From the IMG/VR virus record IMGVR_UViG_3300045988_019087, positions 1 to 5,933 of that record: a stretch of DNA of 5,933 bases. One strand, written 5' to 3'. Both the position numbers and the translations under genes were made by a program. The notes under the pieces were generated by a model that saw only the letters and a program-made list of their open reading frames with translations, was not told where the DNA came from and did not search any database. This DNA comes from a virus. Below, in pieces: positions 1 through 5,933 of the stretch (positions within the stretch are counted from its first letter, which is position 1; every line of letters begins with the position of its first letter).

Positions 1-8
1 ACATCCCA

Positions 9-848
9 TTAGTATCCACTACCTCCTCCGCCGTGTTCTTTTCCTTTTTTGCTTTTGTGCGTCTTTGGTGCATCTGGTACGGTTTTTTCCGTCTTTTGCA
101 TTTGTTTGTAGGTTTTGAGTAAATCTTCTGTTAGTTGTTTTGGGCTGCTGTAGCTTGTGCTCATTTGGCTGCCCACGGCTTCTGCGAGTTGATACCATTG
201 TGAGCTGCTTTGCGATTTGCTGTAATAGCTTGTCGGTACGTTTCCGCTCATGGTTGATACGCCCAGGGCGCTTGACGATGGCATTCCCATACTTGCTCCT
301 GTAATGGTCGCTCCTGCTCCGCCTGGTGTGCTTGCTCCTCCGTTAGCAAATGCTAAAATAGGATTTAAGCCTGCTTTTTTCATGTCCTCTACTGCTCTTT
401 GGTAGCTTGTGCTGCTCATGCGCTCTTGGAAGTTTCTGTTTGCCAGTGCTTCGGCGCTGTTGTAATTCATTGCTGCATTTTGCTCGATGTGGTTATAGAT
501 TCCTTGCTGGATTGCTCCTAGCGTGTTGTACCCCATCTGCATTAACATGTTTTGACGGTTTGTTTTGCTCTGGAATGCGTTTTGTCCACCTTGCCAGCCA
601 TAGAAGCGGTCTAGATAGTCCATAATTTGTTTATCGTTTGTACCGCCTTCACTGCTTGAGCTGCTTGCTCCTCCCCCTTGGCTTTGGCTTTGGTTGTATC
701 CTTGGCTTTGGCTTTGGCTTTGCTGCCCGTATAGTCCTTGAAGGCCTTTTCCTGCTAGTGTCATTGCTCCTGTGACTAGTTGCGGGTTTTGCGCTGCCCA
801 TTGTAAACCTTTTGCAGCTATTCCACCGATTGTTGATAAAAAGCTCAT
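9..848 (-). CDS. VP2: DNA pilot / minor capsid protein VP2
   Basis: 279-aa ORF immediately downstream of VP1, the canonical position. Gly/Ser/Gln-rich low-complexity core (QSQSQSQGYNQSQSQGGGASSSSSEGG) and basic C-tail, typical of microvirus pilot proteins. Single possible ATG at 846-848 with an in-frame TAA just upstream. Stop TAA at 9-11 overlaps the VP4 start across the circular junction. Confidence 0.75.
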   Translation of the reverse strand: MSFLSTIGGIAAKGLQWAAQNPQLVTGAMTLAGKGLQGLYGQQSQSQSQGYNQSQSQGGGASSSSSEGGTNDKQIMDYLDRFYGWQGGQNAFQSKTNRQNMLMQMGYNTLGAIQQGIYNHIEQNAAMNYNSAEALANRNFQERMSSTSYQRAVEDMKKAGLNPILAFANGGASTPGGAGATITGASMGMPSSSALGVSTMSGNVPTSYYSKSQSSSQWYQLAEAVGSQMSTSYSSPKQLTEDLLKTYKQMQKTEKTVPDAPKTHKSKKGKEHGGGGSGY

Positions 849-850
849 TT

Positions 851-876
851 AAAAATAGCCCGGATTTCTCCGGGCT
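851..876 (-). terminator. Rho-independent terminator/attenuator between VP1 and VP2
   Basis: On the minus strand: AGCCCGGA-GAAA-UCCGGGCU (8-bp stem 857-864/869-876, GNRA-like loop) followed directly by AUUUUUAA and the VP2 ATG. It sits right after VP1, the gene needing the highest expression, as in the phiX174 post-J/F/G terminators. Confidence 0.55.
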
Positions 877-886
877 TCCTCCTTTC

Positions 887-2578
887 TTACAGTTTGTACA
901 AGCCCGGTACACTGTACAGTGGCATACAACGTGTGGTCTTGTTTGCTACGCGGATTGCTCCAAAGAACTGGTCTTCGTTCTGTACGATGAGTGTTCTTGC
1001 AATTTCTGCTTTGCCTTCTGCCATCCACTCCTGTGACAGCGTTGGTACTGCAGAGTAGTTGTCTGCATAGTGCCAGAAATCTAACGTGCCTGTTGCGTTG
1101 CTTCTCATGAGGCCGCTTACACGGTTCGGCTTCATTCTGTAATCCGCCCAGGCCTCCTGATAGCCGAACGTTTCTTCATCAGTTGTCGTGCCGGTTAACA
1201 TGATTTCTTTTTTCTTTACAGGCTGTTCGCCAAGGTTTGCAAACTGAGGCACGTAATAGTCCAGTCTGTCCTTTCTACTCCAGAATCGCTCAAGTCCCTG
1301 CTGGTATGTTCTGTTGTGACGTACACACATTACACCGATTACAAATCCGTGTTCCTCAAAGCTCTTTGTAAAGGAGCTTTCGTTGATAGGCGTTACTGAC
1401 ATTGCGCCTGTTTCGCCAATTGGCGTATCGTTTGCGTTCTGCTGTCCGCTTGTCTGCACGATTTGGTTCATGTTGACGTGGTAGCGTCCTCCGCCCAGAT
1501 ATTCCGGAATCTGCACCGTTTTGTCGCTGATGGTCACATCCCACAGTGCCTGTACTTGTTCACGGTATCTGCTACCGCCTCGTGCCATTGCTTCATAGTA
1601 CTGCTGGACGGCTACTGCCTTTCGCAAGTCGTTGATAGTTGCTGCAGTTACGCTGCTAAGGTCTGCGCCAAGGTATGCTACTTGGTGGTCTGAGCCAGTT
1701 CCGTCTCCAATGTTTAAGTATGCTGCGCCGTTATTTCCGTCTTGTCCGATTGCATACAGTCTATCTTTGACGTTGCCCGGGTTTGTGCTTCCGTCAAAAA
1801 AGCTGTTTGCATAGATACTTGTTTTGCTTGTGTAATTTTTGTCTGTGTATCCTGTCACCATTGCATTTCCACTCAACGGTAGCGTTACCTCCGGCCCTCG
1901 CTGTGGATAAGGCAAACAGCTTGAGAAGTAGTCGTGAAAACGGTTGACTGGAAGACATCGTCCGCCCTTGCATGCTTCTTGCAGTGTTAATTCTGCAATT
2001 TCTGTAGATGTCTCTTGGTCTTGGTATGTTTCACTTTCATCGCCATCATTTTCTATAGCTGCATTTCCTACGTTTTGGTCTCTGAAAAATTCGTTCCAAA
2101 TTTTTACGTAAGCTCTTATGGGCAGCGAATTGACTTCGAATTTTCCTTTGTTGGCTTTTGCCACTCTTGTTGGCACACCCATGTAGTCCAGAATGCTTTT
2201 TTCGAGTGGAAATGCGGTCTGGCCTGTTGTTTCGATTTTGATAGTCGGTACACTGTATGTCTTTGTCGGCATCCATGGCCTACTATCCACTTCTCCCATG
2301 AACTGTTTGAAGTTTTTCCACAGGATTCGGTTTGGACAATAGAAGTAATAAAAATCGATAAATGCATCATCCATCACCGGATATTTCGGTGTGGTCATGC
2401 GGATGATTGCGCTGGTGTCTACTTGGAATGTGTCTCCCGGCAGCACCTCGTCTACAAAGAATGGAATGAGCTTGCCGCTGTCGAACGTGGTTAGGATTGT
2501 CTGGTCACGATTGAATCGTGTTCGGCTTGTGTGCATCTGTGGCACTTGTAAGAAGTGTCTTTCATTGTTTCTGTTCAT
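887..2578 (-). CDS. VP1: Major capsid protein VP1 (Microviridae, gokushovirus-type)
   Basis: 563-aa ORF, the largest in the genome. N-terminus ...FNRDQTILTTFDSGKLIPFFVDEVLPGDTF... matches the conserved gokushovirus VP1 N-terminal signature (..S...tt.d.G.L.P....EvlPGDtf). ATG at 2576-2578 is preceded by a strong SD (AGGAAGGGAG, about 10 nt upstream). TAA stop at 887-889. Length is typical for gokushovirus VP1 (about 530-570 aa). Confidence 0.92.
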   Translation of the reverse strand: MNRNNERHFLQVPQMHTSRTRFNRDQTILTTFDSGKLIPFFVDEVLPGDTFQVDTSAIIRMTTPKYPVMDDAFIDFYYFYCPNRILWKNFKQFMGEVDSRPWMPTKTYSVPTIKIETTGQTAFPLEKSILDYMGVPTRVAKANKGKFEVNSLPIRAYVKIWNEFFRDQNVGNAAIENDGDESETYQDQETSTEIAELTLQEACKGGRCLPVNRFHDYFSSCLPYPQRGPEVTLPLSGNAMVTGYTDKNYTSKTSIYANSFFDGSTNPGNVKDRLYAIGQDGNNGAAYLNIGDGTGSDHQVAYLGADLSSVTAATINDLRKAVAVQQYYEAMARGGSRYREQVQALWDVTISDKTVQIPEYLGGGRYHVNMNQIVQTSGQQNANDTPIGETGAMSVTPINESSFTKSFEEHGFVIGVMCVRHNRTYQQGLERFWSRKDRLDYYVPQFANLGEQPVKKKEIMLTGTTTDEETFGYQEAWADYRMKPNRVSGLMRSNATGTLDFWHYADNYSAVPTLSQEWMAEGKAEIARTLIVQNEDQFFGAIRVANKTTRCMPLYSVPGLYKL

Positions 2579-4260: not shown

Positions 4261-4289
4261 ATTTTAGCAGGTTTTTTACTGTTTGTCAA
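4261..4289 (-). promoter_or_regulatory. Sigma70-type promoter driving the minus-strand gene block
   Basis: On the minus strand: TTGACA (plus 4284-4289), exactly 17 nt of spacer, TAAAAT (plus 4261-4266). An A-tract upstream (plus 4291-4298 T-run) is UP-element-like. Predicted TSS is about 4254, giving a ~170-nt leader before the peptidase gene. Confidence 0.5.
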
Positions 4290-4381: not shown

Positions 4382-4556
4382 TTTTCAACACTTTCAACAC
4401 TTTCAACAGGTTTTCAACAAAATATTGCACAATGATTTCCGTCATTTTGACGAACTTTCAACATTTCAACAAATTTTCCACAAGACTTTCAACAGTGTTT
4501 TTCGCTTGTTTTTAACGTTTTATTGTTATAAATTTATATTTTTCAACTTTTCCACA
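4382..4556 (+). repeat. Iteron array: about 10 same-orientation copies of 9-mer YTTTCMACA, including two DnaA-box consensus matches
   Basis: TTTTCAACA 4382-4390; CTTTCAACA 4391-4399 and 4400-4408; TTTTCAACA 4411-4419; CTTTCAACA 4455-4463; TTTCAACA 4464-4471; TTTTCCACA 4474-4482; CTTTCAACA 4486-4494; TTTTCAACT 4540-4548; TTTTCCACA 4548-4556. The two TTTTCCACA copies fit the DnaA box TTWTNCACA exactly; the others differ at one position. Followed by an AT-rich tract at about 4500-4545. Confidence 0.7.
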
Positions 4557-4593
4557 GTCTCTACTACTACGTCTACAACAAGTTAATATAATA

Positions 4594-4637
4594 TACGCGC
4601 GCATGCGTGCGCGCTACGCGCGCGCGTGCGTGCGCAC
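4594..4637. repeat. Alternating purine-pyrimidine (CG/CA/TG) Z-DNA-prone tract: two tandem ~21-nt repeats
   Basis: TACGCGCGCATGCGTGCGCGC (4594-4614) then TACGCGCGCGCGTGCGTGCGCAC (4615-4637). Each unit is fully alternating Pu/Py. Almost pure GC in a genome whose plus strand is otherwise T-rich. Highly self-complementary, so it has cruciform potential. Confidence 0.7.
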
Positions 4638-4640
4638 CGG

Positions 4641-4664
4641 CAGCCCCCTTGCTAGGGGGCGCTG
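4641..4664. repeat. GC-rich hairpin 1 (GCCCCC-ttgcta-GGGGGC, flanking CAG/CTG with a bulge)
   Basis: Perfect 6-bp stem 4643-4648/4655-4660, extendable by 2 bp across a 2-nt bulge. Confidence 0.55.
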
Positions 4665-4670
4665 ACGGAA

Positions 4671-4696
4671 GGGGGTAGGCCGATAGGCCTACCCCC
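4671..4696. repeat. GC-rich hairpin 2: perfect 11-bp stem GGGGGTAGGCC-gata-GGCCTACCCCC
   Basis: Stem 4671-4681/4686-4696 with all 11 pairs Watson-Crick, GATA tetraloop. Followed on the plus strand by TATTTTG. Confidence 0.65.
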
Positions 4697-4703
4697 TATT
4701 TTG

Positions 4704-4722
4704 CTGATAACTGATAACTGAT
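4704..4722 (+). repeat. Tandem heptamer CTGATAA x2.7
   Basis: CTGATAA CTGATAA CTGAT lies between hairpins 2 and 3. The GATA motif also forms the loop of hairpin 2. Confidence 0.45.
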
Positions 4723-4745
4723 TTACATGGAGTCTGAAGTCTATC

Positions 4746-4772
4746 ATCATCCCCCCTTCTAGGGGGGATGAT
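4746..4772. repeat. GC-rich hairpin 3: perfect 11-bp stem ATCATCCCCCC-ttcta-GGGGGGATGAT
   Basis: Stem 4746-4756/4762-4772, loop 4757-4761. The flanks CTATCAT / ATAGAG extend it imperfectly. Confidence 0.65.
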
Positions 4773-4780
4773 AGAGGGGT

Positions 4781-4813
4781 TAGCCAAGTTCTTACTTGAT
4801 AGGTACTTGGCTA
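4781..4813. repeat. Hairpin 4: 9-bp stem TAGCCAAGT ... ACTTGGCTA with a 15-nt loop
   Basis: Stem 4781-4789/4805-4813. Lies 11 nt from the VP4 stop codon. Confidence 0.5.
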
Positions 4814-4823
4814 GGTGACACCG

Positions 4824-5843
4824 TTAGAGTGTCCCTCTCTTCTTCATTTGCTTTTTGATGACTCTTTCTTTTGTTTCACATTGCTCTGCAAAGTCTGCGT
4901 TTTCATACTTTAGCCGATTTTCTGCTATGGCTGCCGCCTGTCTGTTTTGCTTAATTCTCCACAACCTTTGTGGGTTTTCAGCTTCCATCATTTTTTCATA
5001 ATAACGTGGAATTTGTGCGTGTTTTCCGTTTGTGCATTGGATGTATCCTTGTCTCCATATTTCTGTTTTGTGTTCTTGGTAATAGTGGTCTCCAAGTCCC
5101 GGTTTTAGGCTCATACATGCAAAAGGCTTTGTTTGCCCTAATTCATAGTATACGTTTGCTTTCTGGCCGTCAATTTCGTACATCTTTTTTGTGACGTACC
5201 CTGCAACATATCTATATGTCTCTGGTACTGCTTGTGCTATCTGTATTTGACCCATGCCCCAGATGTCTGTTAGCCATTTACTTGTGAAATATCCGTTGTG
5301 TTGTATCTTGTATAGGTGCTCTAGGTCTGTTGGCTTCCATCCGTATAGTATCATATGATAATGTGGTCTAGCTGTTTGCTCTCCGTATTCTCCTGCTACA
5401 AAATAGCGTAATTTGCCCCTGTAAGCCTTTCTAAGACGTTTTAGGAATTTTTGAACGTCAGTATACAGTAATGTTTGTACGCTTTTAGGCGCTTTCTCTC
5501 CTGGCTTCCAGACGTATTGTACTTTTCTCATGATTTCGCCTGTGTTTATAATCATCCCAGGCACGTGTTCATCATCATACGTTAGAGTGATAAACCACAC
5601 TTCTTCTTTCGGATAGTCTCGTGCTTCTAATTCTATACGTGTTGTCCAGTCCTCTCTCTGTCTTATTCTGCATCCGATGCATTGCCCGCATGGTATTAGC
5701 ATTACATCTTTTCTATACATCAAATCTTCATATTTTAGCTGTTTTCCGCAGACTTGAGAAAAGCGGGCAAGTGAATACACCCGCCCGCTTATTTCTTTGT
5801 TGTCAGGGTTGTACAGCCTTATCAATGGCTTGTAACATCCCAT
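4824..5843 (-). CDS. VP4: Replication initiation protein VP4 (rolling-circle Rep, HUH endonuclease)
   Basis: 339-aa ORF. HUH motif inside ARPHYHMILYG. Catalytic tyrosine motif YVAGYVTKK (YxxxY..K) as in phiX174 gpA and gokushovirus VP4. Cys-rich N-terminal region (CGQCIGC). ATG at 5841-5843 (equivalent to window positions 7-9) preceded by GGAGGAGG, which is itself formed by VP2 Gly codons. TAA stop at 4824-4826. Confidence 0.9.
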   Translation of the reverse strand: MGCYKPLIRLYNPDNKEISGRVYSLARFSQVCGKQLKYEDLMYRKDVMLIPCGQCIGCRIRQREDWTTRIELEARDYPKEEVWFITLTYDDEHVPGMIINTGEIMRKVQYVWKPGEKAPKSVQTLLYTDVQKFLKRLRKAYRGKLRYFVAGEYGEQTARPHYHMILYGWKPTDLEHLYKIQHNGYFTSKWLTDIWGMGQIQIAQAVPETYRYVAGYVTKKMYEIDGQKANVYYELGQTKPFACMSLKPGLGDHYYQEHKTEIWRQGYIQCTNGKHAQIPRYYEKMMEAENPQRLWRIKQNRQAAAIAENRLKYENADFAEQCETKERVIKKQMKKRGTL

Positions 5844-5933
5844 TAGTATCCACTACCTCCTCCGCCGTGTTCTTTTCCTTTTTTGCTTTTGTGCGTCTTT
5901 GGTGCATCTGGTACGGTTTTTTCCGTCTTTTGC
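5835..5933. repeat. Terminal redundancy: exact 99-bp copy of window positions 1-99 (circular genome wrap)
   Basis: Bases 5835-5933 are identical to 1-99 on direct comparison. The duplicated part contains the VP4 start and the 3' end of VP2. Genome unit is about 5834 bp. Confidence 0.9.

Follow-up and report, generated by a model that had tools for sequence, protein, structure and literature searches.

How does translation of VP2 begin when the only Shine-Dalgarno (SD) sequence available to it is separated from the start codon by a stable hairpin? The question is raised by the VP1-VP2 junction of a gut gokushovirus (a microvirus), IMG/VR record IMGVR_UViG_3300045988_019087. The window, meaning the whole stretch of 5,933 nucleotides analysed here, has a terminal redundancy of 99 nt, which shows the genome to be circular; it is roughly 5.8 kb in size and has nine ORFs. 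The same VP1-VP2 layout is annotated in GenBank KT264791, with an intergenic gap of 39 nt. A VP1 search of 185,579 species genomes returned no relative and no prophage relative. The features that matter for the argument are the following.

887-2578, minus strand: VP1 major capsid gene, the upstream cistron (563 aa; Pfam Phage_F, E = 2e-134; phrog_514)
887-889, minus strand: VP1 stop codon TAA, the end of ORF 887-2578
878-886, minus strand: SD sequence GAAAGGAGG, with its GGAGG core at 882-878, the sole SD available to VP2
857-876, minus strand: hairpin AGCCCGGA-GAAA-TCCGGGCT, 8 bp and GC-rich, identified by folding, terminator scan and covariation
849-856, minus strand: U-rich tail AUUUUUAA, a candidate terminator U-tract and the single-stranded spacer to the AUG
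9-848, minus strand: VP2 DNA pilot protein (minor capsid) ORF, ATG at 848-846 (279 aa; phrog_8742, E = 7e-106, aligned from residue 4)
4824-5843, minus strand: VP4 replication initiator, Rep (phrog_942 and PF23343)
4261-4289, minus strand: best promoter-like site on the coding strand, TTGACA-17-TGcTAAAAT (11/12 consensus matches, extended -10)

Read from 889 to 846 on the minus strand, the junction is TAA GAAAGGAGG A AGCCCGGA GAAA TCCGGGCT ATTTTTAA ATG. We consider it probable that the 38-nt spacer between the two genes is a composite element, combining a split ribosome-binding site (RBS) with a leaky intrinsic terminator.

Anatomy and conservation of the VP1-VP2 junction

A reading of this DNA from sequence alone had placed the only strong SD of VP2 directly after the VP1 stop codon. 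Indeed, GAAAGGAGG at 886-878 forms an anti-SD duplex of -15.0 kcal/mol, the strongest among the gene starts in the window, and the tail AUUUUUAA contains no SD. The 12-mer originally quoted does include this SD, but its last two bases (A876 and G875) belong to the stem; a single unpaired A separates GAAAGGAGG from the hairpin, which begins 10 nt past the VP1 stop on the coding strand. The extended complementarity of GAAAGGAGG is no more than a hint that the 16S 3' end of the host is CCUCCUUUC. From the GGAGG core to the VP2 ATG the linear distance is 29 nt, in line with the 30 nt or so first given, whereas the distance with the hairpin excluded is not about 8 nt but 1 + 8 = 9 nt, plus the width of the stem base. 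The remaining genes in the window have their SD 4-12 nt from the start, and the effective VP2 spacing (9-12 nt, with the stem base to be added) lies near the upper end of the range used by this genome. An in-frame TAA stands immediately 5' of the VP2 ATG, as had been noticed. One alternative start, an in-frame ATG at codon 29 with AGGAG 2 nt upstream, was rejected: its Met is not conserved, the 28 N-terminal residues are conserved as protein, and the VP2 N-terminus is conserved from its Met onward across relatives. The statement that VP2 has no other in-frame start with a conventional SD thus stands.

That a terminator-like hairpin fills the gap between SD and AUG is borne out by two approaches. 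In RNA folding of the junction, the 8-bp hairpin is present in both the minimum free energy (MFE) and the centroid structure; the centroid has -16.3 kcal/mol (z = -4.4), and none of 200 shuffles was equally stable. Folded as DNA, the hairpin has -10.2 kcal/mol (z = -4.5). The terminator scan flags the same element, with 8 pairs (6 of them GC), a loop of 4 nt and the tail ATTTTTAAAT, which has 5 T in 8 nt and a TransTermHP-like score of -3.39. Anatomy and placement are those of an intrinsic terminator: a GC-rich stem within 5-14 bp, a loop within 3-8 nt and a U-rich tract directly after, on the transcribed strand and downstream of a coding region. A comparable hairpin and T-run (a stem of 8 bp or more, 6 or more of them GC, followed by 5 or more T in 8 nt) occurred on either strand in only 2% of 300 dinucleotide shuffles of the genome, so the element is not a chance feature. 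By its anatomy, then, the hairpin that bridges SD and AUG resembles a leaky intrinsic terminator, though one with a modest U-tract (5 U in 8, and 4 in some relatives), and termination may therefore be weak or absent.

Other identities for the element were examined and set aside. Sequestration of the SD by the U-tract appears in the MFE structure as G-U pairs between GGAGG and UUUUU, which contribute only about 1 kcal/mol and are missing from the centroid. An Rfam scan of the whole window with 4227 covariance models gave no match at the gathering threshold in the junction; the lone sub-threshold match there, BSnc120 on the opposite strand, scores 20 bits against a gathering score of 114 and is attributable to chance. 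A mobile or REP-like element was also rejected, as 93 of the 103 matches in an exact 16-mer scan of IMG/VR are the same VP1-VP2 junction and the other 10 lie in unrelated chance contexts.

The order stop, SD, hairpin, AU-rich tail, ATG is found in all 79 genomes of the clade, which comprise 44 distinct junctions. Across these genomes the SD lies 1-2 nt from the stem and the stem 8-10 nt from the ATG, for a sum of 9-12 nt. The linear spacing (29-31 nt) is conserved as tightly as the folded one, and spacing alone cannot discriminate between the two. The 38-nt spacer is better conserved than the flanking coding sequence, with nucleotide identities of 89-96% in the junction, 80-90% in the last 150 nt of VP1 and 62-94% in the first 150 nt of VP2. 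The stem is under structural selection: among the 44 distinct relatives 97.2% of cells are paired, double (compensatory) changes occur at 6 of the 8 pairs and none of 500 shuffles scored as high, a signal that cannot separate RNA-level from DNA-level selection because mRNA and viral ssDNA are of one sense.

Position of the SD before or after the hairpin in related junctions

To extend the comparison we used 169 hairpin-bearing VP1-VP2 junctions from related gokushoviruses. The SD is found either before or after the hairpin, and none of the 169 has both SDs or neither. In type A, like the junction studied here, the SD is upstream of the hairpin only (120/169) and the tail is 8-11 nt. An SD motif stands just 5' of the hairpin in all 120, pairing there with the anti-SD at -9.2 to -16.3 kcal/mol, and nothing in the tail pairs more strongly than -1.7 kcal/mol; 119 have 4-6 T within the first 8 nt of the tail. 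In type B, the SD is downstream only (49/169), at conventional spacing in a tail of 16-34 nt; here the upstream segment never exceeds -2.9 kcal/mol, and the tail duplexes reach -9.1 to -17.5 kcal/mol. Type-B junctions (stop-hairpin-U tract-SD-ATG; OP971934 / L082, L087, L166-L200) thus lie between the same two genes and retain the GC-rich hairpin with its T-rich tail after VP1, but their SD is 4-10 nt from the ATG, a conventional RBS for which the hairpin is not needed. Indeed, the identical hairpin AGCCGGGTCAAAACCCGGCT has its SD upstream in L056 and downstream in the L087 group.

Two further kinds of variant are informative. Hairpin-free relatives have the order stop, SD, short spacer, ATG (in L081, GGAGG, 9 nt, ATG), which, as judged from the sequences, is the layout that the studied junction would have if its hairpin were removed. 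Where 19-90 nt are inserted after the VP1 stop (L012, L021, L123 and L152), the SD stays beside the hairpin and the ATG, not beside the stop. These comparisons favour a split RBS specifically. The original proposal of a discontinuous RBS of the T4 gene 38 kind accordingly gains support from the either/or placement of the SD, the insertion variants, the hairpin-free layout and the reduction in spacing from 29 to 9 nt.

The junction counts are phylogenetically non-independent, and type A may have arisen once. In a neighbor-joining tree of the 300 C-terminal residues of VP1, Fitch parsimony gives at least 14 state changes among four junction types, a count that is unreliable as a number of independent events owing to recombination at the junction. 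Type-A and type-B junctions are scattered on this tree; within the L087-L126 clade, the type-B members have a single junction sequence in common, probably spread by recombination.

Alternative roles for the hairpin

Three other explanations of the arrangement were weighed. In one, the hairpin does no more than terminate transcripts or stabilise their 3' ends and its effect on spacing is irrelevant, VP2 being translated either by termination-reinitiation, in which an SD after the stop holds ribosomes that then slide to the AUG, or from an SD-less start on the AU-rich leader. In favour of this account, the AU-rich tail is unstructured, the SD of most type-A genomes starts 1-5 nt past the VP1 stop, and stop-start coupling is seen elsewhere in the genome, at the VP2/VP4 TAATG overlap. 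However, the insertion variants show the SD tracking the hairpin and ATG rather than the stop, and type-B genomes have none next to the stop, their SD keeping normal spacing to the ATG and being separated from the stop by some 30 nt or more. Moreover, a sliding ribosome would not be spared the hairpin, at about -16 kcal/mol, which it would need to melt or otherwise deal with, and SD-independent initiation leaves the SD kept in 120/120 type-A junctions unexplained. We regard this account as unlikely.

Selection could instead act on the packaged ssDNA, where the hairpin would serve in priming or complementary-strand synthesis, as a packaging signal or as a recombination site, and the positions of SD and ATG would be incidental. 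The complementary-strand origins of phiX174 and G4 are hairpins in the F-G intergenic region, and here the viral strand has mRNA sense, the element is stable as DNA, the junction is unusually conserved and the scatter of A and B junctions on the VP1 tree suggests recombination at this point. Against this, DNA-level selection does not explain the conserved T-rich tail or the either/or SD placement with its matching tail length; relatives of types C and D manage without a hairpin; and a non-coding region of 530 nt, with much stronger hairpins and repeats (4386-4813), is a better candidate for an origin. This explanation seems to us less likely still than the first. The least probable, which we think very unlikely indeed, is that the hairpin is an operator to which an RNA-binding protein of phage or host would bind and so repress VP2, as at the coat protein-replicase operator of MS2. 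Between SD and AUG it would be ideally placed for occlusion, and the stem sequence GCCCGG/CCGGGC shows fair conservation, but the loop varies freely in sequence and length (GAAA, GCAAAA, AATAA, TTATT, GTTT, GGAAAC), stems change by compensatory swaps, the L088 clade has a different hairpin sequence in the same place, and the nine ORFs include no evident RNA-binding protein.

Proposed dual use of the hairpin and comparison with known systems

In the split RBS that we favour, the folded hairpin would be looped out on the 30S platform, leaving a single-stranded spacer of 9 nt instead of 29, and SD pairing and placement of the AUG in the P site could then occur simultaneously, as in T4 genes 38 and 25. 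With 1 nt between them, the SD-anti-SD helix and the hairpin could be under steric strain. It had been suggested that the structure gates VP2 translation. This is overstated, since at about -16 kcal/mol the hairpin probably stays folded throughout and would serve as a permanent structural spacer, not as a switch.

At the transcriptional level, the RNA that runs into the hairpin probably begins near 4289, at the promoter-like site, and the hairpin with its U-rich tail would terminate part of these transcripts. The same promoter-like pattern is present on the coding strand of 22 related loci, and no promoter-like site was found between VP1 and VP2. The terminator would be placed directly after the most abundant structural gene and could form a protective 3' hairpin on the VP1 mRNA. 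Across the circular junction, the VP2 stop and the VP4 ATG share bases (TAATG), which places VP4 downstream of the hairpin as well; VP2 and VP4 would be made only from read-through transcripts, at lower levels, and terminated transcripts, ending before the AUG, would carry no truncated VP2 ORF. Tentatively, we suggest further that the one 20-nt hairpin is needed for two opposed steps, as a partial terminator after VP1 in the nascent transcript and as the obligatory bridge of the VP2 split RBS in the read-through mRNA. VP1-terminating ribosomes parked 10 nt upstream would cover the SD and could hinder hairpin closure, linking VP1 translation to transcription and initiation of VP2/VP4. The A/B polymorphism might then mean that gut gokushoviruses repeatedly rewire the junction to set the dosage of pilot protein and Rep.

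Microvirus virions contain capsid and pilot protein at about 60 to 12, and one 38-nt element could bring pilot protein and Rep below the capsid protein in dosage, which would affect the VP1:VP2 stoichiometry, as had been proposed. More generally, the layout may adjust how the downstream genes are both transcribed and translated. Such double use would suggest economy of regulatory sequence in a phage of roughly 5.8 kb whose coding strand has one strong promoter-like site, and the element suggests a compact part for synthetic biology that combines terminator and RBS. Start-site predictors that require an SD within about 15 nt would find none for VP2.

Documented split RBSs are few, those of T4 genes 38 and 25 being the examples that our literature searches returned; they were reportedly described by Nivinskas et al. 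in 1999 and by Malys and Nivinskas in 2009. The VP1-VP2 junction has the corresponding attributes: a linear SD-AUG distance above about 15 nt, a hairpin in the gap that cuts the spacing to about 5-11 nt, no alternative SD or start, and a covarying structure. In T4, folding shortens the spacing from 22 to 5 nt for gene 38 and from 27 to 11 nt for gene 25 (PMC3014915). There, as here (29 to 9 nt, a folded spacing within the T4 range), an SD too distant in linear sequence is restored to a workable spacing by a stable hairpin at an intercistronic junction of phage structural genes, and the structure is conserved in one clade and absent from more distant relatives. Unlike the T4 hairpins, the one described here has a U-tract and lies 10 nt past the upstream stop, and so has intrinsic terminator anatomy as well; it belongs to a small ssDNA microvirus of the gut, and in sister genomes the same hairpin is found with its SD on the downstream side. 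The junction would add a large natural family of about 120 genomes, with 93 exact-motif matches in IMG/VR, for which the sister genomes with a relocated SD or without a hairpin are built-in controls. Literature searches found no relevant prior description of a gokushovirus junction of this kind, nor of a split RBS with a terminator nested inside it.

In phiX174, the intergenic regions that hold terminators are longer and a conventional RBS of its own serves the next gene; to our knowledge, nesting of a hairpin between SD and AUG has not been described in that phage. Its terminators TJ, TF and TG are 40-60% efficient and TH 90%, and they shape graded transcript abundance (PMC11527146). As here, these are hairpins after structural genes, including the major capsid gene F, in a member of the same virus family. 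Among bacteria, the mccA-mccB intergenic terminator is proposed to control the MccA/MccB ratio (PMC4231749), and expression-limiting terminators lie between the co-transcribed genes dksA-gluQ-rs and rpsU-dnaG (PMC3542578). All three share with the proposed arrangement a terminator in a short intergenic region immediately before a low-need gene expressed by read-through, and in mcc the ribosomes on the upstream ORF influence termination. They differ in that the hairpin is not described as bridging an SD to a start codon; gluQ-rs has no obvious SD adjoining its start. Finally, the "split ribosome binding site" of E. coli thrS (Sacerdot et al., discussed in PMC3936740) offers a likeness in that the 30S subunit accommodates a folded, unmelted hairpin while contacting two separated mRNA segments. 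In thrS, however, the hairpin does not lie between SD and AUG; it parts an upstream single-stranded standby segment from the segment that holds them both.

Anatomy of the VP1-VP2 junction

The window spans a circular microvirus genome, 5834 nt long, with a 99-nt terminal redundancy, and its nearest GenBank records are gokushoviruses of human and pig gut (77-83% nucleotide identity). The minus strand carries all of its genes, listed here in transcript order:

Minus strand, first: peptidase M15 gene and several small ORFs
Start 3205, minus strand: VP5
Probable start 2973, minus strand: VP3 scaffold, between VP5 and VP1
2578-887, minus strand: VP1 major capsid (Pfam Phage_F, E = 2e-134)
848-9, minus strand: VP2 pilot protein (phrog_8742, E = 7e-106)
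5843-4824, minus strand, last: VP4 replication initiator (Rep)

Read along the minus strand from 889 to 846, the VP1-VP2 junction is TAA-GAAAGGAGG-A-AGCCCGGA-GAAA-TCCGGGCT-ATTTTTAA-ATG. GAAAGGAGG forms a -15.0 kcal/mol duplex with the anti-Shine-Dalgarno (anti-SD) sequence, the strongest among the gene starts of the window, and 29 nt separate its core from the VP2 ATG in the linear sequence; SD-to-start distances in all other genes are 4-12 nt. A sequence-only reading had placed a hairpin in this gap, and RNA folding bears it out: the 876-857 hairpin is present in both the MFE and centroid structures, with a centroid energy of -16.3 kcal/mol (z = -4.4), and none of 200 shuffles was as stable. 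With the hairpin left out, 1 + 8 = 9 unpaired nucleotides separate SD and ATG. The proposed shortening of a long linear gap stands with its distances adjusted to these values, and the description is otherwise correct.

The ATG at 848 is the true VP2 start, because an in-frame TAA lies directly 5' of it, the VP2 family profile aligns from residue 4, the N-terminus is kept from Met onward in all relatives (the same reading had seen no other in-frame start with a conventional SD), and the GenBank annotation of KT264791 has the same VP1-VP2 layout, with an intergenic gap of 39 nt.

Comparison across gokushoviruses

Querying IMG/VR with VP2 returned 80 relatives at 55-98% amino-acid identity. The junction was recovered from 78 of them, all with identical architecture, giving 79 genomes with the window and 44 distinct junction sequences. 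Across these genomes 1-2 nt separate the SD from a stem of 7-9 bp with a 3-6 nt loop, and the ATG follows the stem after 8-10 nt; the unpaired nucleotides add up to 9-12. When the 44 sequences are aligned, 97.2% of stem cells are paired and 6 of 8 stem pairs show both-sided changes, e.g., C-G to G-C and G-C to C-G; none of 500 shuffles and no slid register comes close to this covariation. Nucleotide identity to the window is higher in the non-coding junction (89-96%) than in either the last 150 nt of VP1 (80-90%) or the first 150 nt of VP2 (62-94%).

With outgroups from GenBank and from IMG/VR, the latter queried with two more distant VP1 proteins, 217 classifiable junctions fell into four types:

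Type A (n = 120): stop, SD, hairpin, short AU tail, ATG
Type B (n = 49): stop, hairpin, U tract, SD, ATG
Type C (n = 36): stop, SD, short spacer, ATG, hairpin absent
Type D (n = 12): stop and start overlapping or abutting

These counts are not independent events, and type A may go back to one origin. We scored the 169 hairpin-bearing junctions by the energy of duplexes formed with the 3' end of the 16S rRNA. Where the tail between stem and ATG is 8-11 nt (n = 120; 68 distinct sequences), duplexes 5' of the hairpin are -9.2 to -16.3 kcal/mol and none inside the tail is stronger than -1.7 kcal/mol, in line with the earlier proposal that the sole strong VP2 SD lies upstream, with no conventional alternative. 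Where the tail is 16-34 nt (n = 49; 36 distinct sequences), tail duplexes are -9.1 to -17.5 kcal/mol and the upstream duplex is never stronger than -2.9. None of the 169 has both SDs or neither. The hairpin AGCCGGGTCAAAACCCGGCT is common to a type A junction (L056) and the type B group of L087, and type B genomes are interspersed among type A genomes on the VP1 tree, which recombination at the junction blurs. Four loci (L012, L021, L123, L152) carry insertions of 19-90 nt behind the VP1 stop, and in them the SD is still 1-2 nt from the hairpin, away from the stop. L081, which has no hairpin, reads stop-GGAGG-9 nt-ATG, the layout that excision of the hairpin would give the window junction. Linear and folded SD-ATG spacings are equally constrained.

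One type A locus of IMG/VR (L107) has the SD-hairpin-tail module in front of a VP2 that starts with GTG rather than ATG. Types A and B also mix on the VP1 tree within the L087-L126 clade and L082/L166-L200, and 44-nt junctions are identical between genomes whose VP2 is only 57-59% identical to that of the window. Because of this intermingling and these identical junctions beside divergent VP2, the conserved junction suggests a recombination boundary between a capsid module and a pilot/Rep module.

Translation and transcription across the hairpin

To judge from sequence, the SD/tail split, the shared hairpin, the insertions and L081 together say that the upstream SD is that of VP2 and that selection acts as if the hairpin were uncounted in the spacing. 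VP2 initiation would then depend on the folded hairpin bridging SD to AUG. T4 genes 38 and 25 are documented precedents for this spacing: structure reduces it from 22 to 5 nt and from 27 to 11 nt, respectively, destabilizing that structure lowers initiation, and its conservation does not extend beyond close relatives (PMC3014915). In E. coli thrS, the 30S subunit can hold a folded hairpin (PMC3936740).

Termination-reinitiation or SD-independent initiation of VP2 is weakened as an explanation, since the SD moves with the hairpin and ATG instead of staying at the VP1 stop, and is kept in 120/120 type A junctions. A function of the hairpin in the single-stranded genomic DNA would suit its stability as DNA (-10.2 kcal/mol) and the viral strand being of mRNA sense, but is improbable: it leaves the T-rich tail and the SD/tail-length rule unexplained, and for an origin the 530-nt non-coding region is the better candidate, having repeats and hairpins that are stronger. 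A protein operator is unlikely, given that loops are free to vary and stem changes are compensatory. A mobile element was excluded, since this same VP1-VP2 junction accounts for 93 of the 103 places in IMG/VR where the 16-mer matches exactly.

In sequence terms the hairpin with its U-rich tail, only a moderate U-tract, also qualifies as a predicted intrinsic terminator; it comes right after VP1, the most abundant structural gene. The genome has two strong terminator-like sites, this being the sole one on the coding strand; 2% of whole-genome dinucleotide shuffles yield a comparable hairpin plus T-run. A scan of the window found no promoter-like site between VP1 and VP2, and the best on the coding strand (4261-4289, minus strand; near-consensus extended -10, TTGACA-17-TGcTAAAAT, a pattern also present on the coding strand of 22 related loci) lies upstream of the peptidase gene, so VP2 and VP4 would be made from read-through transcripts after partial termination at the hairpin, which could thereby affect VP1:VP2 stoichiometry. 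Parallels are the leaky phiX174 terminators (TJ, TF and TG, 40-60%; TH, 90%; PMC11527146) and the terminator of mccA-mccB, which has been suggested to set the MccA/MccB ratio (PMC4231749). In E. coli a ribosome at a stop codon hinders terminator folding, with a threshold of 10 nt from stop to stem (PMC4824070); because that distance is 10 nt here, VP1 translation could, speculatively, tune read-through.

Split RBSs are known, and so, separately, are leaky terminators in microviruses. In literature that takes in only a minority of subscription journals, we found no description of such a gokushovirus junction or of a terminator-like hairpin as a split-RBS bridge. The junction is widespread, with strong comparative support, and natural control variants make it directly testable.

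Other elements of the genome

VP2 and Rep both lie downstream of the VP1 hairpin. The VP2 stop and VP4 start overlap as TAATG (7-11, minus strand; 5841-5845 in the repeated end), with GGAGGAGG inside VP2, 11 nt upstream; Rep translation is probably coupled to VP2. Also within VP2, a tandem GGCTTTGG-type repeat (~660-730, minus strand) encodes a low-complexity Gln/Ser-rich stretch.

In the non-coding region, 4386-4556 holds at least 8 TTTCAACA-type direct repeats spaced by 8-9 nt or about 64-86 nt; these are iteron-like and may be binding sites for Rep or a host factor near an origin. A palindromic block of alternating GC (4594-4637) is followed, up to 4813, by three GC-rich hairpins:

4670-4697: 12 perfect bp
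4746-4772: 12 perfect bp
4781-4813: 14-nt arms, 86% complementary

The first is terminator-like in the antisense direction, because a T-run follows it on the gene-free plus strand. Another hairpin, GCGGGC...GCCCGC at ~5763-5790, lies in the 5' portion of VP4. The stretch that includes it (5708-5793, minus strand) matched Rfam Termite-leu at 28.4 bits, short of the family's gathering score of 51 (E = 0.004). True membership of that family is improbable; the stretch could be a structured element, for instance an origin of replication inside Rep like the one in phiX174 gene A.
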